10,454 nt of DNA from positions 1-10,454 of the forward strand of contig JAKLZA010000135.1 of assembly GCA_030704615.1 (NCBI GenBank). The letters are read 5' to 3'. The notes beneath the pieces are model-generated. The model was not told where the DNA came from, did not search any database, and saw nothing but the letters and a program-made list of their open reading frames with translations. Source of the DNA: Takakia lepidozioides (lineage: Eukaryota; Plantae; Bryophyta). The position numbers and the translations under genes are program-made. This document shows, piece by piece, positions 1-10,454 of the stretch; the first letter of the stretch is position 1; every line of letters begins with the position of its first letter.

Positions 1-154
1 CAAGTGTTAAATACAAATAACTAGTTTTATTCTAGCTGTTTTCACACTGTGCTTATTTAACTTGACAGCTGTCGTGCGCATACATATCGCTACACAACTA
101 CATCGCTGTCCAAACCACACCACACATATATGCACAATAAAGTAGTCTGCCACA
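1..154 (-). repeat. Probable start (U3) of the 3' LTR, truncated by the window edge
   Basis: The minus strand reads AGGGGGGCGAT-TGTGGCAGAC..., a G-run followed by a TG start at 154, about 260 nt after the pol stop. The sequence becomes AT-rich beyond this point. No second copy in the window confirms it. Confidence 0.55.
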
Positions 155-166
155 ATCGCCCCCCTA
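155..166 (-). promoter_or_regulatory. Putative polypurine tract (plus-strand primer)
   Basis: Minus strand AGGGGGG (166-160) plus a short spacer directly before TGTGG at 154, the expected position for a PPT. Confidence 0.55.
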
Positions 167-414
167 GCTGGTGGATAGGTCCCTCTACCTCCAGATAGCT
201 ACAAGATGTAATAGCCACAGCCGTACTAAGTCCTCTATCACTGTCCCTACCGTGCTCAAACTCTATCAACCAAGAGGTCGGGTACAAGAGTAGCCCCATC
301 GTTAGTCGCCGTCTTGCAATCTGTGAGCTTGAGCCAGGATCTCGTGTGTTCAAGGTCTCCTAGTAGCTGGGCCTTGCGTTTCTTGTTAGCCTTCCATGGT
401 TGTATTCACTCCCA

Positions 415-1860
415 CTATCCAATGCAATGTAGACATAACCAATCCCCATCCGGAACCATCTCAAGAGGTGGAGTCAAGCATCCCATATGCCAACCTCTAG
501 AGCACCGATCACATACCAGCATGGTGGCTGCCCCTTTAGCAGACCCACACAACATGCACCTCAAACCTGCAGATACCACTGCCAGGTTTGGGTCAATCCT
601 GTCATCGACATTCGGAAGGTGACATGGCGCACAATTACGCACATGGTCCTTCCAAGTTATGCCATCCCGACCCTCCAAGACCAAGACGCCTGAGGGCAAG
701 ACCTCTCGAACCCTCAAAATAACACGTCCTGCAGTCACATCCAGGGTCGTAGGAGCAGTCTGCTGCAGATAGACATAGTCACCAGGGTTGAATCTCCGAA
801 CCCCAGGACGATAGCCCCCACCACGTATGGTAGCATACCTCAACGTATCACGGTGTTGTGCAATGGCAAGGTTCTCGAAAGCCATGGGCATGACTCTCTT
901 GAACAACTCTGCACGCTGCTCACATGCACGTGCCCACACGTCCGGATCGTCAAGGTTAAGAACTGTAGCAGCTTCTCTGCGAATGGATGTAGGCAAATCC
1001 GGCTCTCGGCCAAAGAGAAGAAAGTATGGTGAGAAGGAGGCAAGTGATGCTTGCTTGCTCAACCTGTAGCCCATGGCTAACCAGGGTAACTGAAAGGTCC
1101 CAATCTCCTAGGTGTCCCTTCTGCAAGCCATACTTGCGCAAACCCCTCTTTACTGTCTGAACAACTCTCTCTGCCAAGCCATCGGCCTCAGGATGATCCC
1201 GAGAAGTGGTGCGGTGGTCTATCAAGGCCTTGTCACACAAAGCCTGAAACTCCCCCAAGAACTCTCTCCCTTGGTCCGTGAGTACCTCAGCTGGAGCACC
1301 GAATCGGCTAAGCACACAATCCAAGAATGCATACGCAGCTCCCTCACTAGCCTTATCAGGCAATGGAACCAATTCAATCCACTTGGAGAAGTGCTCCACC
1401 ATCACCAACACGTACTTGTTGTGGCGCATGGTCAGTGGCAACGGCCCTGCGAAGTCAAGACTCCACCTGTAGCCCAATCCCATGATCGGAAGAGGGTGCA
1501 ATTGTGGAGTAGGGGCGTTGAATGAAACACGCACCCTGTCACACACCATGCACCTAGCCACAAATTGTTGCACCTCTGTGTGCATACCACGCCACCAATA
1601 CTGCCCCTGCAGTAGACTATGAGTGCGTCGCACCCCAAAATGCCCCAACTCCTCATGGGCATGCCGCACTAACCGTGCCCGCTGTGTTGGGTGAGGCACA
1701 ATCCTCACTCGACCATCCTCCCACACTCGGAGCAGGTGTGTCCCCTCCCACCTGAACCTCTTGGCTCGTTGTAGGATCCGATCCCTCTCCTTGGCAGTCA
1801 TAGTGGCTGCCGTGTCTCCACTGCGGAGGTAGTCCAACACAACTGAATCCTCATGTATAT
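415..1860 (-). CDS. pol: Integrase domain of pol (zinc-binding HHCC, DDE core, C-terminal domain, PHD); one frameshift near 1093
   Basis: HAHEELGHFG...YWWRGM...CMVC (HHCC, from about 1657); WSLDFAGP (D at 1456), LTDQGREF (D at 1276), DGLAERVV (E at 1171); SPYFLLFGREPDLP downstream. ORFs 956..2074 and 415..1074 join by removing one base from the A3 run near 1093-1095 (DWDL-QLPWLAMGY). Confidence 0.95.
424..558 (-). CDS. PHD finger (C4HC3) at the integrase C-terminus
   Basis: CMLC-x11-CDRC-x4-H-x2-C-LTPPLEMVPDGDWL-CLHC: all eight zinc ligands plus the typical PPLxxVPxGxWxC signature, ending two codons before the stop at 415-417. Confidence 0.95.
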
Positions 1861-2064
1861 CTTTGGCGCCACCCTGCTCATTGCTGGCCTCAGGGTCCTC
1901 AGACACTTGATCTACAGTCATCCCTGTTGTAGGTCCAACCTGGCCTTCCGCTGCCAAGATACACAGAAATGCAGATGCATGCCATCCGGGCACCATCTCC
2001 TCGTCCGTCTCACCATGCCACCGAGCTCCAGTGTCATCCTGCTGGCTCGTGCATGGATTGCGAC

Positions 2065-2425
2065 TCAAACCCATCTACATTTCGATTGACCAAACCCGGT
2101 CGATGCACCACCTGAAGTCATACTCTTGAAGGATGAGTGCCCACCGTGCAAGCTTCTCCCGTAAGCTTGTCTGACTCCATCAACCACTTGAGTGGTTGGT
2201 GATCCGTGACAAGGGTGAAGAGATTGCCGTATAGATAGCACCTGAAGTGTGCCACGGCCCACACTGCAGCTAAGCATTCTCCCTCATATGAGCTATACTT
2301 AGACTCTGCAGCATTGTTTGAGCGGCTAGCATAAGCCACTACGAACTCTCTTTCTCATCATCCACCTGTGTGAGCACCGCTCCAAGCCCCAGCATGCTCC
2401 AATCTGTATGCAGCTGAAAAGGACC
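2065..2425 (-). CDS. pol: RNase H domain of pol (Ty3/gypsy type), frameshifted
   Basis: FQLHTDWSMLGLGAVLTQ (D at 2402-2404), VAYASRS, YSSYEGECLAAVWAVAHFRCYLYG, LVTDHQPLKWL, LARWALILQEYDF, then GLSR. Confidence 0.93.
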
Positions 2426-2429
2426 CCCT

Positions 2430-3480
2430 GATAGGTCGTCTCAAGATGGGGCCGAGGTCAACCTCGCCTTGAGCTCTTGAAAAGCTTGTTCTTGCTCATC
2501 TTCCACTGCCACTCCTGGTCCACCTTGGTCAGCTTGGTTAGAGCCTTTGCAATGGCACTAAATCCCTTAACAAACCGTCTGTAATAGTTTGCTAACCCCA
2601 TGAAAGCTCGAACTCGGCTCACATCCGTGGGGCGTGGAACTGTGCAATGGACTCTACCTTAGTCTGCTGTACCCCCAATCCTCTAGGATATATCATGTGA
2701 CCCAGATACTCAATCTGGTTGTGGAAAAACTTGCACTTGCCCGGATGTAACTTCAATCCATGCGTCCTCAAGCGCTCAAATACCCCTGAAGGTGTCTCTC
2801 ATGCTCCTCCACCGTAGCACTAAGATGATGATGTCATCTATGTAGCACCGAGCAAACTCCACCCCTGCTAGAATCCTGTCCATGACTCTTGAAACTCAGC
2901 GGAGCGTTTTTAAGCCCAAATGGTAAGAACCGCCACTGGTATAGGCAATCCTTCCCGTGCTCATTGATCCCCCAGAATGCCGTCTTTTGCTTATCCGCCT
3001 CCTTGATCGGCAACTGGTGATATCCGGATCGTAAATCCAACGTGCTAAAGACCTTGGAATGCCCAATGGCATCAAAGATCTCCTCTGGTGTTGGCATGGC
3101 ATACCTATCGGACTTGGTCTGACGATTTACAGGCGGTAATCACCGCACATACGTCTCTCCGTCCAATTGCCATAGACATCCTTCTTAGCTGGCATCACTG
3201 TGGGCTGAAGCATACTCTCCACCAAGAGAGCTCCACCAAACCTGCCTCCCAGAGATCTTGAGTCCTCATCTGAATCAAAGACCTCTCCATGTCACTGTAT
3301 CTATAGGGTCTCCGAAAGATTGGCGTGTCAGTGGCCAACTCAATACGGATCTCTTGACCCTTCAGTGCTCCCAAGTCCTTCAAACTGAAGGCAAAGCAAT
3401 TCCTATAAGCCCTCAGGAACCGCCGTATACGTCGTCTCTCTCCTCCGGTGACAATGGGTCCAATGTCAGGCTCCCAATTG
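2430..3480 (-). CDS. pol: Reverse transcriptase domain of pol, several frameshifts
   Basis: PIFRRPYRYS, RRMCGDYRPVN, FSTLDLRSGYHQ, KTAFW, LPFGLKNAP, catalytic YIDD (2844-2833), KCKFF, YLGH, RAFMGLANYYRRFV. Confidence 0.96.
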
Positions 3481-3839
3481 TCCTCCGTAACTGCAACCTT
3501 AAGTCCAGTGGGCTTAGAGGTAGAGGACGGCCCGTGGTTGCTATGCTGCAACCTCTTGAGCAGTACCCCCTTCCTGCTCAGTCAATGACAAGGCCTCATC
3601 CTGCCCCATCATCTCATCATTGAGAACCTCCTCATCCGAGAAGAATCCTCAACCTCATCCATCACAGCTGCCTTCGCTGCCAACTCCCTCTGAACCTCGA
3701 GCACCTCCCACATGTGCCATGGATGTCTACACCTCGTGGTCCTCACCGGCTCGCCCCACTCGCTGCCTGTACCGTCTCGGTAGGCAGAGAGAGACGTCAA
3801 GGGAAGGAAGTGCACTCCGCACTCTACGTTGCTCAGCCA

Positions 3840-4790
3840 TAGCCAAGCTGACAATCCAGGTCAAGCAATTGAGATCCATTGCTTGCCCCAACACCTGACG
3901 ACGTGATGCCTCAGAAAGAGAAGGCACCGCCGTGGTCCCAGTGGAAAACCCCATAGCCCGCTCTCGCTCGTCGGCATTAGGCTCCACTAACTGCTGCAAC
4001 TGAGCATCCCACAGGAGGCCAGGTCCACCATCCCGAAAAGCATGGGATCCTGGGAAGCTGAGCAGTGTAGGTAATGCTGCTCGTGGTTGACCCACCCTGT
4101 TGACACTGCCAAAGGCGAACGGTCATCGTGTCTCACACGTTGAGACTGCCTTCCTGTGTCCAAAATGCCATCCACGGTGAGGGTGCTGGCCGCTGCACCC
4201 CATCAAATGCACGCTTGAGCAGTGCGGGTGGCATCAAGTTAGTCCACCATAGTCGTGGACGATGAGCCCGTGACCCCACTACAGCTGCATCCAGCAACAC
4301 TGCTGACCCAAGCCACGACCGGACTTGATGCACACTGGCCATCACCCTGGCCCGAGAATCACCCATCAGTGGTACATTCTCCAAGATGTATGCTGGAGAT
4401 ACAGCTTGATGAAGCTGCAAGCAGCGCAAAATCCGCACCATCTCCCAAAACAGACCCGTCCTCGAGTCTTGCAATCCATTGCCATGCCCGGCTGATGAAT
4501 GCCCTTGGCAGGGCCAACCTGCCACTATCAGATCAATGGAGCCAACCTGCTCCAAATCTTGCGCCCCCAACAAGGAAATGTCTGCTGGCAAGGCTTGTTG
4601 GTATCCACGAACTGCAGACACAGGCAACAAGTCAGGGTACTGCTGTACCAACTGAGCCACATGGCGCAGTGAGACGCGTCGTGCAGTCTCATCCCTCTCC
4701 ACATACAGGTAACGCCTACCGTACACCTGCCTGTAGCACAGCAGCCAATCCGGTGCTGATCCCGCCAAACAAGTCCAGAAGGCAAATGCC
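3840..4790 (-). CDS. C5 cytosine DNA methyltransferase catalytic domain, DNMT3-like, embedded in pol; split by a few frameshifts
   Basis: Motif I LLDLFGGISTG (4781-4749); II YVERD; III ADI; IV DLIVAGWPCQGHS (catalytic Cys 4510-4508); V DSRTGLF; VI YILENVP (ENV 4381-4373); VII LLDAA; VIII AHRPRLWWTNL (about 4265-4235); IX ERERAMGF (3969-3946); X RRQVLGQAM (about 3903-3877). The motifs are in canonical I-X order. Confidence 0.92.
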
Positions 4791-5179
4791 TTCATCCGGC
4801 CGCTGCCACACAAGAGGTGTGGTGTCCAATGGCGACAACTGAGGTGGCCCTGGTGCAATCACCGCACTCTCCTCCTCTCCTGACGGTACAAAAGCTTCTA
4901 CCCAAGCTTGTTGCACCCGTCCATCAGCAGCTTGCTGCAAATCCTTGCTCGTACCCCACAACGGAGTGTGAGCAACCATGGCAGGCAACTCCGCCGTACC
5001 ATGCATGTCATCCTGCTCTGCTGGAGGTGGCACATCCTCTGCATGGGCATTGCCTTCCAGCAACTCTCCAGGCCAACTAACTGCAGCTGTGAAGGCGGCT
5101 AGTGTTGGCATCTGCCCCGCTGGGCAGCTGCAATACCCCCAATGAATGTCACAGGGAGCTGTGCTGACACGGCGACCAT

Positions 5180-5602
5180 CCCCTGACTGCCATCCAGGCT
5201 GTAGGATGCTGACTCCTCCCAGAAATCCAGGGTGAAGCCCATGGGGTATAACACTGCCCCACCAACGAAGACATCGTAAGAGACCGCGTCTGTCACAATG
5301 GCCTTGGCTCGCATCACTGAGCCATCTACAGGATGATCCGGATGCAGTCTAATAGCCAACTGATGCCGTGTCATGCCGCGAGCCTGCTCTGATCCTCCCA
5401 GAGATGTCTGTATCTGGAAAGGACAAGGCTCCATATCCGCCTCCATGAGGCCCAAACCTGCAATAGCAGCTCTGCCCAACATCAGTGGCTGAGCTCCTGA
5501 GTCCAACAAGACCCGCAGTGGCCGGTACTTCTTGCCTGCCGGTCCACTCAAAGTGAAAATGCCTCCCTGGTTGTCTAACAAGACAACTCCAGGTGTCACC
5601 AT
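5180..5602 (-). CDS. pol: Retropepsin-type aspartic protease domain of pol
   Basis: RVLLDSGAQ catalytic motif (D at 5503-5501), flap-like IQTSLGG, and YDVFVGGAVL at the position of the ILGxDxL motif. Confidence 0.88.
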
Positions 5603-6137
5603 GGCGCGCTCAATGGCTGGCCTAGCTGGCAGCTCCGTTAACCTGGCAGCTGCAAATTGCCATGCGCGCAGCCGTGGCAGTCTTGACCCTCAAATCCGAG
5701 GATCCTCTGCCACTACATCTTCTACTAACTCCGCAGAAGATGAAGTGACCTCCCCACTCTCACAGAGTGTTGCTGCTAGTCTGAACACTGCAGCTGGTCT
5801 CACCCCCGGCGTCGCAATCATTGTTGCCGAGAACAGTGGGGCCTGACACACAGAGGTGGCTGCCCCCAATAACACCCGGCCGCACTAGCCTTGGCAGCAG
5901 GAGTCAATGCTGCACGTGTAGCTCTCCCCAATGCATAGTAACCTCCGCCTCGGTAACAGTCGGGCGAGAACTAGGTGCCATGGATGGCGTCGACACAGTC
6001 TCCGCCAATGTGAATGACTGAGGAAGCCTTGCCTGACGGCTTGCCTCCCCACGCTGTGGATCCAATTCCACCTCTGCACCTCGTGGCTCAGGAACTCGTG
6101 CTGTCCTCGAGTCACGGCTGCAGCAGACTCCACTGCT

Positions 6138-7732
6138 CTAGTGGTAGTGCTGCTCCGCACATAAATCCCATGCTTCCCATATCTCCTCCCTCAGGAGCAG
6201 GAGGTGGACCATCCCGCCTGGGAGCCGGTACGTACCGCCTGAGCTATAGCCATGGCAGCGAGCCTCTGCTCTAGCTGCTGAAGCCGGGTTGGCCATGCCT
6301 TGATCAACACCCTGACCTCCGCGTCCTTGGCCATGTTGAGGTTGCCCTTGGCCTGCACCTCGTGCCCGACCACCTCGTCCTCTCTGGGCTGGTCCATTTT
6401 GCCCCCGGCCACCATTGTTCCCTTGGAACTGGCCTGGGCGCAAACTCAGGATGCAAGTCATAACACTGGGCATCTCCATGCCCATACTTGCCACAATGCC
6501 CACACTGCAACTGTGCAGGCTGTGCTTGTGGCGGCCTTCTGCCATTCTCTGGGCAATCTCTTTGACATGGGGTCCTCCACATATCCAACATATCACCCCT
6601 GGTTGCTGTTGGCCTGCAAAAGATGCCACGGGCCTCTGCACCTGAGGTCCCCTGTAAGCTCCATGGAACTTGGGCTGGGCAACCTTGCCCCCCTGACCAC
6701 GCTGTTGGGCAGTCCCTTGTGCCTGTGGGCTGACAGCTGTGCCCCGTACAGGCATGTCCTTGCCAAATCCAATGTAACAACTCGCTCCTCCACCATGTTG
6801 AGCTCAATCCGCTCAGCCAGCAGAAACACATTGCTCTAAGGTGGGTTGGGCTGCTTGTAACAGGGTTGCATCTCGCACCCTTCTCTTGAGCTCCTTGTCC
6901 AGAATTCCATACCAAAACTGGATTGCCTGAGCTTCAGTAACCCCTTGGGTCACACTTATCAAGCGCCTCATACGAGTGTACGCCTCTCGCAGGCTCTCAC
7001 TGGGTTTGCGCTGGAAGTCTTGCAAACTTCGCAGCTTCTCTGTCCGTACACCTTGGTAGTTCCTCCGCAACTCCTGGAAGAACTCCACCCCGGGTTGAAT
7101 CTAGGCACATGTGTTGTAGTCGTGGCAGGAGGAGTAGTAGCACCTTTTGAACTGGTACCACCTGCAGAAGTACCAGCACTACTTGCTCCACTACTAGTGC
7201 TGGCAGTGGGAGCTATTGGTACTGATGCAGCTATGGTCGCGTCGTGCCTCGAGTAATGGAGACGTAGTCAGGTGACCAAAACATCCTCCACTCCTCAATC
7301 TCTGCTTCATGTCCTCGCCTGAACTCGTGGTAATCGTCCATAGGCGGGCCTTCCAAATGCTGGAACAGTCCCTTCCACGCATGAATGGGGGTGAATAGCT
7401 GTGGATTGCGCATCTGCTGCTGCAAATCACACCAGATAAAGTCATCCAACTCATTGTGCCCACAGCTCCAGAGTACCTACGAGGCCCCTGGTAGCTCCAT
7501 ACATCTCCTCCATGTCGTCCCACAACAATGGCGAATGAAAGTGCACACCTGTTGATGAAGCCTCCGAGTCTGGTCTGACTCTACAGTAGTTGAGGGTGGC
7601 GGTGAAGGTGGTCTGAACCGAATACCTCGTCTGTGAACCCACTCTCACTGTCACTGCTGTAGCCGTACTCCCCTCAAAACCCTTGGGTAACTCCGTATGA
7701 CACTCACAATGTGCACCTCCTCCACGTGACAC
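6138..7732 (-). CDS. gag: Gag (capsid plus nucleocapsid), frameshifted; start uncertain (candidate ATG at 7513 or further upstream)
   Basis: Retrotrans_gag-like LQDFQRKPSESLREAYTRMRRL...AIQFWYGILDKELKRRV (major-homology-like region), two zinc knuckles, and a Gly/Arg/Gln-rich segment, all upstream of the protease. Confidence 0.85.
6463..6590 (-). other. Two CCHC zinc knuckles of the nucleocapsid
   Basis: CWICGGPHVK/RDC (6590-6553, CX2CX3HX4C, spans a 1-nt frameshift) and CGHCGKYGHGDAQC (6504-6463, CX2CX4HX4C). Confidence 0.85.
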
Positions 7733-7831
7733 TATAAGGCTCTAGTACTAATCTAATAGTGACAACGGGTGGGCACCTGTTGCAGTCTAAGGGTCATATC
7801 CCAATGGCTCAGGGCACCTGCACCTGCATCC

Positions 7832-7925
7832 ACCGCAAGAACTCCTATGGTGGCTGGTCATCAACCCAGCCTCACCATAGAAGAAACACTGGTGGTCTTG
7901 CGGTCATCACTCCAGCCTCACCACC
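7832..7925. repeat. Nested inverted repeats overlapping a 22-nt imperfect direct repeat, upstream of gag
   Basis: CTATGGTG-GCTGG (7845-7857) pairs with CCAGC-ct-CACCATAG (7866-7880). ACCGCAAGA (7832-7840) pairs with TCTTGCGGT (7896-7904). GGTCATCAACCCAGCCTCACCA (7856-7877) versus GGTCATCACTCCAGCCTCACCA (7902-7923) match at 20/22. Confidence 0.75.
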
Positions 7926-8239
7926 GACAGCATACTCTAGGATTGACCGGTGATCAAATCCGGCCTAATCCCTATGAAAGCAAGCGCCCACACAAAACCA
8001 ACATGGCGCACAGTCAAGCATGCAGGTGTTGGGGGGGATCCAAACACAAGAAATCAAACATCAACACCCCCACACCAAAATCCAGCAGCAACGCTGATCC
8101 TGCAGAATATCCCAGCCCAAAACCCCGGACTGACTGGCCTCCACCAAGAGAGGTTGGCAACTACAAGTACAAGGTAATGAAAAAAGTACAGAGATGGAGG
8201 GAAGAATAGAAGCCCGCCCAAGCAAGATCTAATCCTGAT

Positions 8240-8981
8240 CTATTCTATCAGCTTCCAGACTTCTCTCAAAGTGCCTCGCTCTGCTTGATGGTAAGGTGTA
8301 GGAGGTATATCTATGTCCAGAAACCTGCCACTAACCTTGTCCCAAGCTACAGTAGCTCGCTCTAACCAACCCTCCTCCTCTTTCTGCCAGGTAGAGACAA
8401 AGCAACACTCTGCTATCTCCCGCTCACTGAACACTAAAGAAAACAAAGGTAGGGTCTGATAGTCTCTCAACTCGAAAGCTTTGAGACGGTTGCGGGTGTC
8501 CTCATTGCGAATGATGCATCTCCTTCACGCACAACAAAATGTCATTGCTGATGAACCCCCGCTCGTGGTTGCCCTGTGCAGCGCGTATCCGGCTGCAACC
8601 ATGTCTGATTGCACAAATTGTGTAGCTCCTGCTCCTCTGCTCCAGTACACCACGGCCTTGTGGCTGAACACCTTGGTCCGGGGCTGTCTTTGGCTGTGTT
8701 CCAAGCCTAGCTTTCACCCACTTTGGTATTTCACCTACAGCGCAGAACTGCTGCTCCAACAGAGTTCTGACTGTCCAAGGCGATATTGAGGCCCTCAATG
8801 CCAACTACAGCAGTCTGTTGTCTACTGCTAATGCCTGACTCCCAGTATGCAATCAACTCGTCCAACTGTTCTCCACTCAAATCAGTCTGAGTTCCTTGGG
8901 AAACATAAATCCTGTCCCTTGTGTGCACAGGCTAAGAGAAGAGACCTGCCCTTCAATTACGTCCTCATTTCCCCCAGCCAT
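8240..8981 (-). CDS. Hypothetical protein of about 245 aa, stitched across roughly three frameshifts; possible accessory ORF of the element
   Basis: ATG at 8981: MAGGNEDVIEGQVSSLSLCTQGTGFMFPKELRL / SGEQLDELIAYWESGISS... / EIPKWVKARLG...SNDILLCVKE / CIIRNEDTRNRLKAFELRDYQTLPLF...EVWKLIE*. These are abutting same-strand fragments with protein-like composition. No family recognised. Confidence 0.45.
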
Positions 8982-9237
8982 ACAAGGAGTACATCCACAG
9001 ATTTGTCTCAAATAGACCAACACAGGTTCTAGAAACAGGATTGTGGATCTTCATGGCACACTCACACTCTAAAAATTCCATAGATTTTTAGCAGAGTCCC
9101 AAAAAACAGAAACCAGGTCTAGATAAGTAGATTTCCCCTTCTGCAACTATCCCCTCAAAAACTGAGTCAAACGGAGCTCATTTGACAAAGATATGACCAA
9201 CCAGGCTCTTAAAAATAACAACTTTTAGATCAAAAGG

Positions 9238-9254
9238 TTTTTTTTTTTTTTTTT
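9238..9254 (-). repeat. T17 run (poly(A) on the minus strand)
   Basis: 17 consecutive T at 9238-9254. Confidence 0.95.
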
Positions 9255-10454
9255 AACACCAAAACGTTTTGCCATTACAACCTGTTCCCAGGTTATCTAC
9301 GAGTTCCGAGGTCGTTCCCCTCCAGGATTCTCAAGGCACCAAGAGCTCGTGTAATTCCAAAACTCGACCTCAGTTATGGATGGGGGTATCAACCCTAGGG
9401 CGATTCAAGAGCAGGTCAAGAGATGCACTGCGAAGCACCTTCATGGCTTATGGACAGGCGGCCTGCAATCGAAAGATTCGTGGATGGTGGGACTTGCACA
9501 ATACATCTACCACATCGGAGGTGAAACCGAGGAGGAACTGACTCCCACATATGACATTGCCAGTGTGAGAGGAAAAACAAGTTGTCCCATGGTGGATCCC
9601 TCGATATCACAGAGCTTTCAGGTGCACTTGGCTTGACGGCGAGAGTATTTGGCAGAAATCTCTTCCCTGTTCTGTAAAACCCTGCACCTGCTTGCCATTA
9701 CTTCTGCCAATTTTCCAGTTCTCTAATTCTAGTTAGAATCCTGCTTTGCACCCTATCCTGATCGTCCTCAATCTCTTTGGCAATATGGGTGTGTACTGCC
9801 ATCTTTGATTCCAACAGCTGCATTTAGTTCTTTGCTTCTCCCTTTTGTATCCCCTGATCCTACAGGTTCGGTAGTGTAAGTAGAAATTGGGAGCTGTTTT
9901 AAGCGCCTGACAATGGAAGCAATGGACTAGGGAACACAGGAGTAGGCGTGGCTCGTACACCTGAAGGAATCGACCGAGATCTTCTCAGCTTGTTGGCACC
10001 AGCCCTGGAAAATATGGGTGGGAATCACTCACAGGACTCAAGGATCGTTATGGCCCACAGTGGCCTAACCACTGCAATACAGGCTCTTCGGCTACGGCAT
10101 TGCTTTTCGGCGTTCTCTCCAATGTTGCATTCCATTTAGAGTGTCATTGTAGTGGTAGCCAACTGGCACTCCTATCATCACGCCTACGTTGACCAGGCTC
10201 GACATTGCATGAATCAGCCATCTCAGCAGGTGGGACAGCACAAATCTTGCAGTTGACCTCTCCTATGTACGAGGCTTTGCTTAGCAGCCACAACTTATCA
10301 GCGTCGTTCCCGAAATGATAGGGTCTCGCCGAGAGCTCACATGACGACTCCTCGGCGCATGGCAATGCCTAGTTGACTTCAACCTGCCTCCCCCAAGGCC
10401 AAGATTGTCCAAAACAAACACACCCCGAATCACTGCCTGCCGCTGCACACTCAG
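9238..10454 (-). mobile_element. Possible 3' end of a poly(A)-tailed retroposed sequence (LINE-like element or retrocopy), continuing beyond the window
   Basis: The minus strand ends ...GGTTGTAATGGCAAAACGTTTTGGTGTT-A17, with a compositional change at the T-run. No recognisable protein domain and no target-site duplication seen. Confidence 0.3.

Follow-up and report, generated by a model that had tools for sequence, protein, structure and literature searches.

The window analysed here is a stretch of 10,454 nucleotides from Takakia lepidozioides (contig JAKLZA010000135.1, positions 1 to 10,454), the minus strand of which carries one Gypsy-type element; Pfam and tblastn searches place its domains in the order gag, aspartic protease (PR), cytosine methyltransferase (DNMT), reverse transcriptase (RT), RNase H (RH), integrase (IN) and PHD finger. 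All features below lie on the minus strand unless stated otherwise. The gag region of ORF1 (6290-7505), with a capsid-like part and a zinc-knuckle region, was delimited by a frameshift-aware alignment to P0290, which begins at 7505, and by tblastn with P0006; its Retrotrans_gag match in Pfam (E 2e-4) falls under the curated cut-off, and the true start of gag may lie further upstream, near 7700-7800. The protease (5141-5629) carries LLDSGA with the Asp codon at 5503-5501, is matched weakly by Pfam (E 0.005-0.013) and shows 41-52% identity to its relatives. It is followed by a linker (4791-5140) that is moderately conserved by identity with relatives, by the DNMT (about 3811-4790), and by a C-terminal tail of ORF1 (3544-3810) that is variable in comparison with relatives, whose complete ORF1 products end 63-141 residues past motif X. 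ORF1 closes with a TAG followed by CAA CCA (3535-3543), which is a CAR-YYA context of the tobacco mosaic virus (TMV) type as defined in PMC2754532. ORF2 encodes the RT (2650-3461; RVT_1, E 1.5e-10; YIDD at 2844-2833), the RNase H (2050-2430; RT_RNaseH, E 3e-21), a DDE integrase with an H2C2 zinc finger, a core and a C-terminal part (620-1690; Integrase_H2C2, E 1.5e-16; rve, E 2e-14) and, at its end, a PHD finger (424-558; PF00628, E 3e-10) ahead of the stop codon at 417-415. An earlier sequence-only reading of this DNA had remarked that no PWWP, ADD or UBA domain accompanies the methyltransferase; the remark is corrected in that a chromatin reader is present, namely this PHD finger on the integrase.

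The 3ˊ end of the element follows ORF2. A polypurine tract (PPT; 156-167), found at the same position and with the same type of sequence in L010, L012, L018, L020, L026 and L027, is followed by repeat B1 (70-154), which starts with TG, ends with CGACA and has a weak DNA match to the B repeats of L010, L012, L016-L018 and L020. The junction between B and A is the palindrome GACA-GC-TGTC (64-73), a putative integrase attachment site that recurs after B1 in L010, L026 and L027; the whole PPT-B-GACA-GC-TGTC arrangement is alike in the window, L026 and L027. The start of repeat A2 (1-67), recognized by comparison with the repeats of relatives, continues past the window edge. The gag-PR-RT-RH-IN order, the DDE integrase and the PPT place the element in Ty3/Gypsy. 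Between the PHD stop codon and the PPT, the 3ˊ untranslated region contains a 19-nt motif (292-310) shared by the window and five of seven loci scanned, among them L010 (10108), L026 (8345) and L027 (7929); it is kept across distant lineages including the last two and is possibly a packaging or replication signal.

Upstream of gag the element is less clear. A short GCAGGT repeat directly above the gag start (7828-7812), common to L026 (945-962) and L027, resembles splice acceptors in a leader. Protein-like short frames occur at 8243-8931 (minus strand) and 9355-9636 (plus strand), with a T run at 9236-9254; the short frames of 8243-9984 have no Pfam match, and the one tested has no Atlas match above 0.85. 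This region may be another element or host DNA in place of the 5ˊ end, and a search of the 3 kb of the window upstream of gag found neither a recognizable 5ˊ repeat A (A1) nor a sign of self-priming. Scans of the window for tRNAs and Rfam families found nothing, and its one tandem repeat is trivial.

The sequence-only reading had placed a DNMT3-like enzyme between protease and RT on the minus strand, and this assignment stands: the domain occupies that place, has its motifs in the order described and matches PF00145 with an E value of 7.6e-14. The C5-methyltransferase motifs I, IV (PC), VI (ENV), VIII (RxR), IX and X are all present. LFGGISTG lies at 4772-4749, GWPCQG at 4519-4502 with the catalytic Cys codon at 4510-4508, ENV at 4381-4373 and HRPR at 4264-4253, so that the Cys, ENV and RxR described as intact were all located, and ERERAMGF and RRQVLG share the frame 4122-3730. 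The motifs are on one strand and in order as claimed, but in this copy the domain is spread over four frame segments, with breaks near 4718, 4182 and 4105. The central 176 residues, searched as a single sequence, have DNMT3A/3B as their top solved-structure match (E 4e-6), and a profile built from 57 family sequences matches DNMT3A at E 4e-26 versus 9e-15 for DRM and 7e-10 for M.HhaI. The unpermuted order, unlike that of DRM, is likewise borne out, with motifs I to X following one another. The intact domain of the relative L002 gave a predicted fold with a pLDDT of 96.7, best matched by DNMT3A/3B/3C (Z 29.7, rmsd 2.5 over 274 residues, TM 0.72) and then by M.MpeI-type 4dkj (Z 26.1), M.HhaI (25.1) and DNMT1 (23.2). 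With the solved relatives as the comparison set, the window enzyme is DNMT3-like by profile and by the fold of its relative, with an unpermuted motif order. The Cys, Gln, ENV Glu, His and Arg are each at least 90% invariant among the 57 DNMT sequences. The linker upstream of the domain had been called poorly conserved; instead, the aligned stretch, which extends from linker to motif I, is 37-47% identical to P0001, P0002, P0004, P0006 and P0012 (tblastn). When a viral collection was searched with the domain, one phage-type methylase matched.

The broken frames of the window copy raise the question of its age. From protease to PHD finger we counted 19 frameshifts and no stop in 1597 aligned codons, whereas six decayed moss-like loci in the same comparison have 11-22 stops and 0-4 frameshifts; L002 and L026 have neither in their aligned parts. 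With gag included, the window has 34 frameshifts and one stop. Its frameshifts fall at homopolymers at a frequency of 0.37 versus 0.26, a slight and not a clear enrichment. The pattern of many frameshifts and hardly any stops likely stems from indel errors of the assembly and not from prolonged decay, the copy itself being probably young.

Named relatives with 51-74% identity come from Marchantia polymorpha, Calypogeia fissa and Sphagnum troendelagicum, and Sphagnum fallax has the element as well; the nearest relative of the window is P0001 (77% identity). Protein searches returned 25 and 47 homologues, with no named Klebsormidium nitens protein among the matches, and a metagenome scan returned 40 loci, about 32 of which are the same element (L033, L034 and L036-L040, in which retroelement domains were not found, and L041, a 24-residue fragment, were set aside). 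The dN/dS of the DNMT is 0.131, 0.113 and 0.094 among L025-L027 and 0.158 between L002 and L009, and that of the RT is 0.037 between L026 and L027; among the decayed moss-like copies it is 0.46-0.69 for the DNMT and 0.31-0.56 for the RT in the same pairs. The DNMT is thus under purifying selection between lineages and is co-inherited with the RT. The broken frames of the window copy would suit a passively captured fragment or a secondary insertion confined to this copy. That explanation is refuted to the point that we give it almost no weight, for the DNMT sits at the same position in dozens of relatives, its tree agrees with the RT tree, and values of 0.09-0.16 between lineages are not those of neutral evolution; the enzyme is part of the element and not a single-copy oddity. 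The precedent of retrotransposon-borne DNMTs named in the sequence-only reading is confirmed by PMC5890265.

Relatives whose ORF1 ends after the DNMT form one branch in a quick DNMT tree (23 rows, SH-aLRT 94) and one branch in a FastTree of RT-RH (5 rows, support 100), and the single-ORF elements P0044 and P0046 adjoin this branch in both trees. Single-ORF forms among the sister sequences are P0025, P0044, P0046 and P0050. The DNMT tree excludes P0064, L033 and L039, and for protein-only rows the assignment to the group means that the protein ends after the DNMT. Both trees are quick ones without bootstrap and with neither K. nitens nor host DNMT3 sequences; the DNMT tree has prokaryote-type outgroups only. 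Because single-ORF relatives exist, the in-frame stop looks like a later gain, with a weak root. In three of the single-ORF proteins (P0046, P0050 and P0025) the catalytic motif reads WECQ, not WPCQ.

A profile-free protein search returned 422 representatives of the DNMT at E 1e-10 or better, and a domain scan covered 26 long ones among the best 150 of these 422. In many Gypsy polyproteins among the representatives scanned, the same DNMT clade lies between RNase H and integrase. Polyproteins of this kind that also have a PHD finger include P0048, P0049, P0053, P0055, P0057-P0063, P0140 and P0148, among others; one cluster comes from the chlorophyte Hariotina reticulata, and the aligned P0049 and P0058 keep WPCQ and ENV. 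In two Ty1/Copia polyproteins, P0065 and P0066 (gag, pre-integrase, SH3, RVT_2), a domain of the same DNMT3-like clade sits behind the gag knuckle and ahead of the protease; it retains PPC and ENV, and its remaining motifs have diverged; we did not find a Copia-borne DNMT described in the literature surveyed. Long frames at L038 5229-9335 and L040 6681-9329 and in P0287 (Prorocentrum cordatum) hold a distant C5-methyltransferase domain and otherwise have no Pfam match; they possibly belong to dinoflagellate-type elements.

The sequence-only reading had expected one open PR-MT-RT-RH-IN frame with the DNMT inside pol. This does not hold for this clade: a conserved in-frame stop in a CAR-YYA context splits Gag-PR-DNMT from RT-RH-IN-PHD. 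In L026, a 1369-codon frame for Gag-PR-DNMT, one TAG and a 1047-codon frame for RT-RH-IN-PHD follow each other in the same phase, and the junctions of L002, L025 and L027 are built in the same way. DNMT and RT share a frame in 12 of the 18 sequences in which tblastn placed both. The stop is followed by CAR at 25 of the 27 junctions examined (18 TAG and 7 TAA), the two others being L013 and L014, with unrelated sequence there. CAR-YYA is exact in five: TAG CAA CCA in the window and L002, TAG CAG TTA in L025 and L026, and TAG CAA TCA in L027. Twenty moss-like copies have CAA CCC, short of the full consensus, with TAA in seven and an ATG two codons past the stop; since many of them are near-copies of each other, the independent evidence amounts to about five lineages. 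As background, CARYYA follows 26 of 10,136 stop triplets in the same loci. In the junction alignment of the five lineages, five of nine columns are invariant in the motif versus three of 54 in the flanks, which are 28-44% identical between lineages (61% for L026 and L027). MAFFT did not align the stops of L025-L027 with those of the others, so the equivalence of the stops rests on position and frame.

TMV readthrough depends on the hexanucleotide CAR-YYA, and the TMV context is read through at 6-10% in stably transformed Arabidopsis and at 20-32% when assayed transiently; TAA is read through as well (PMC2754532). Programmed readthrough of the ORF1 stop is, judging from the sequence, highly probable. 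Re-initiation is unlikely because no conserved in-frame Met was found after the stop, the first Met being at codon 3, 5, 14, 48 or 117. Downstream of the stop, strong RNA structure is not a general feature (z -0.7 to -2.5 at six junctions); it reaches about -2.4 in L026 and L027 and is weak in the other four, against shuffles that kept base composition only. If TMV rates apply, leaky termination would leave RT and integrase about 3- to 15-fold scarcer than Gag-PR-DNMT, and the C-terminus of the DNMT would come mostly from termination and not, as the earlier reading had it, from the protease, given the conserved stop behind it.

Splicing could also bypass the stop, the AG of the TAG serving as a 3ˊ splice site that joins Gag-PR, with or without the DNMT, to the RT as in Ogre elements. 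All intact copies do have TAG, and annotated gene models of Marchantia and Sphagnum fallax cross the junction, but four such models (P0004, P0014, P0020 and P0285) each join at a different point, the 43 nt up to the TAG show no U-richness (T 0.16-0.35), and a further AG lies 5 nt upstream in both the window and L026. Splicing would also leave unexplained why CAR-YYA is kept though the second codon varies (Pro, Leu, Ser) and why the spacer is exactly one codon, compared with a mean of 274 bp in Ogre. We regard it as improbable and retain readthrough. Ogre is alike in that its split point follows the protease, and differs by its intron of about 274 bp, the bryophyte element having a stop of one codon and, in addition, a DNMT; no match to an extra RNase H or a chromodomain was found in the frames scanned. 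TMV-type readthrough offers a close parallel, with its in-frame stop and CAR-YYA and with 6-32% readthrough in plants (PMC2754532). In-frame stops between retroelement frames are also described for MuLV, SIRE1, Tca2 and RIRE2 (PMC2754532, PMC2194720), in which, by these descriptions, the stop follows gag or pol, whereas here it follows the protease and an added enzyme. A stop alone proves nothing, as the Tca2 junction alone is described as giving no readthrough.

The ends of the element are best seen in relatives. L010 is complete and has the layout A-coding-B-A-B, with its first A at 1679-2017, and can be written flank-TGTC[A]-leader-coding-PPT-[B]GACA-GC-TGTC[A]-AT-TG[B]GACA-flank; L016 has the same repeats in a rearranged state. 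The relatives have TGTC at the start of their insertions and GACA at the end, and nine loci with about seven distinct flanks all begin at TGTCA. In the three insertions that could be tested, the target site duplication (TSD) is exactly 4 bp (AAGG, CACA and ATGT), neither 3 nor 5 bp. TG...CA ends with 4-bp TSDs, within the 4-6 bp of Ty3/Gypsy, are therefore seen in relatives, the window lacking its own ends; the canonical layout with two full LTRs as outer ends is not, L010 being A-coding-B-A-B. Since a TG follows the PPT and a CA closes A, B and A together probably make up an ordinary LTR. The joint between A2 and B2 varies between copies, being CA-AT-TG in L010 and containing PBS- and PPT-like remnants in L016. 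The CG of the terminal CGACA of repeat B is kept in the window (74-70), L010, L012, L016-L018, L026 and L027, which are CpG-poor elements; L010 B1 and L020 have TG at that position.

In relatives, the CA of A is followed by a primer-binding site (PBS) of 15-16 nt whose complement lies within A, 26 nt downstream of a TATA box. L005 and L026 have the same arrangement, built of unrelated sequences, and it did not reappear in any of 1000 shuffles of the L026 region. A scan for it was positive in four of 12 regions, namely L010, L005, L026 and, weakly, L016; the 5ˊ copy in L010 has no clean TATA. Tf1 primes its own reverse transcription in this manner. From the geometry we consider Tf1-like self-priming, with B+A as the true LTR, probable. 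Self-priming is known for Tcn1 and Tf1/Sushi, whose PBS likewise pairs with the putative 5ˊ end of the transcript (PMC6317226); by that account these elements have a chromodomain, where the bryophyte lineage has a PHD finger and permuted repeats. The linear cDNA of the self-primed element would read B-A-coding-B-A. Ordinary LTR ends are what Tf1/Sushi and Tcn1 have.

End-joining of the linear cDNA would give a 2-LTR circle, and the DDE integrase, by opening this circle inside one of the LTRs, at its B|A palindrome, would produce exactly A-coding-B-A-B. In support of this route are the three TSDs and two different A2|B2 joints, every one of them from moss-like copies, and we favour it by a small measure. 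The layout could also arise with no ligated circle, if the RT jumped from the right end to the left end and stopped at the B|A hairpin, or by recombination of tandem copies. The palindrome of the B|A junction could indeed stall an RT, and some copies (L012 and L020) end after B1; those ends equally fit an opened 1-LTR circle or recombination between B1 and B2. Fixed TGTC/GACA ends with 4-bp TSDs in all three insertions speak against random recombination, and the variable A2|B2 joints with their primer remnants look like end-joined circles. We hold the circle-free origin to be possible but the less likely of the two, and continue with the circle.

As to the enzyme, fusion to Gag would place the DNMT inside the particle together with the cDNA, so methylation of the element's own new cDNA is the simplest role. 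We put at about even chances that the DNMT methylates this cDNA ahead of or during insertion, with CG as the most likely target. The DNMT domain may instead be mainly non-catalytic and serve the Gag-PR product in a structural or DNA-binding capacity, or it may act on another substrate, for instance an RNA:DNA hybrid or the host DNA of the target site. In yeast, the K. nitens domain on its own produced no methylation, which its authors deem inconclusive (PMC5890265), and Gag-level output hints at a stoichiometric role. No element-specific CpG depletion was found either, the observed/expected ratio being 0.50 in the coding part versus 0.46 upstream in the window and 0.27-0.70 in relatives. Against this stand the near-invariance of the five catalytic residues, the complete predicted fold and the CG methylation that Dnmt3 domains from DIRS elements produced in that yeast assay (PMC5890265). 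A non-catalytic role or another substrate therefore seems rather doubtful to us, and self-methylation of the cDNA remains the role we would look for. The nearest solved counterparts of the PHD finger are those of CHD4, DPF3, PHF12, KDM5, BAZ2A, PHF21A, AIRE and UHRF1. Many such PHD fingers read the unmethylated histone H3 tail, like the ADD domain of DNMT3. The PHD finger of the element may read the H3 tail and guide insertion.

Gypsy-borne DNMT3 as such is already known, from PMC5890265 and from one line in bioRxiv 10.64898/2026.05.21.726589 that names 'streptophytes (Gypsy-DNMT3)'. Compared by description and not by sequence, KnitGypsy-Dnmt3 of K. nitens (PMC5890265) is alike in its Gypsy domain set, its unpermuted Dnmt3-like domain in the coding region, purifying selection and a streptophyte host. 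According to the figure legends of that paper it also has a DIRS-like A-coding-B-A-B layout, seen here complete in L010 and in the window only as PPT, B1 and the start of A2. It differs in that its DNMT shares an ORF with RT and RNase H, whereas the bryophyte clade has an in-frame stop. We found no mention in the text of PMC5890265 of Marchantia, Sphagnum or PHD, nor of a TSD, priming or an integration mechanism for the element. SymbioDIRS-Dnmt3 and other DIRS-type elements share the A-coding-B-A-B repeats and a Dnmt3-like domain, as described there, and differ by a tyrosine recombinase in place of the DDE integrase, protease and 4-bp TSDs found here. Assignment to the DIRS order was rejected, with rve and H2C2 present in ORF2 of both the window and L026 and no recombinase match in the frames scanned; Troyka, with CG...CG termini and a 3-bp TSD (PMC12440569), was rejected on the TG...CA ends and 4 bp seen here. 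EpiLTRs/DAM-LTRs are also LTR elements with DNA methyltransferases, but their DNMT is described as sister to DNMT4 and accompanied by DAM and a chromodomain (bioRxiv 10.64898/2026.05.21.726589). In the open-access literature, a scope that stops short of Repbase and the Supplementary Figures of PMC5890265, we found no report of land-plant copies, a readthrough site, self-priming or circle integration for Gypsy-DNMT3.

Taken as a whole, the element appears to represent a Gypsy lineage, with close relatives in liverworts and mosses, in which Gag-PR-DNMT3 ends at a likely leaky stop before RT-RH-IN-PHD, so that the DNMT would be made at the level of Gag and would likely methylate cDNA; we hold this reading with reasonable, though not strong, confidence. 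A wider proposal joins it to the integration route: an old green-plant lineage whose DDE integrase cuts circular cDNA at an internal LTR palindrome, and in which a leaky stop gained in land plants turned a working DNMT3 into a capsid-level enzyme that pre-methylates the cDNA. This we advance tentatively, as falling short of probable, and within it methylation of the CG in CGACA could decide which attachment site is cut.

To our knowledge, no role has been demonstrated for a retrotransposon-borne DNMT. The presence of the lineage in Marchantia polymorpha, a transformable model plant, makes self-methylation of the cDNA directly testable. The conserved and likely leaky stop suggests that the ratio of DNMT to RT is fixed by selection, which hints at function in a way that the algal element, with its single ORF, could not. 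Integration of 2-LTR circles is usually seen as a dead end for DDE retroelements, and if the permuted repeats stem from it, this lineage would be a natural case of that route. LTR finders that require two TSD-flanked LTRs, as in PMC6317226, would miss A-coding-B-A-B elements, and plant annotations list pieces of the element as hypothetical or methyltransferase genes.
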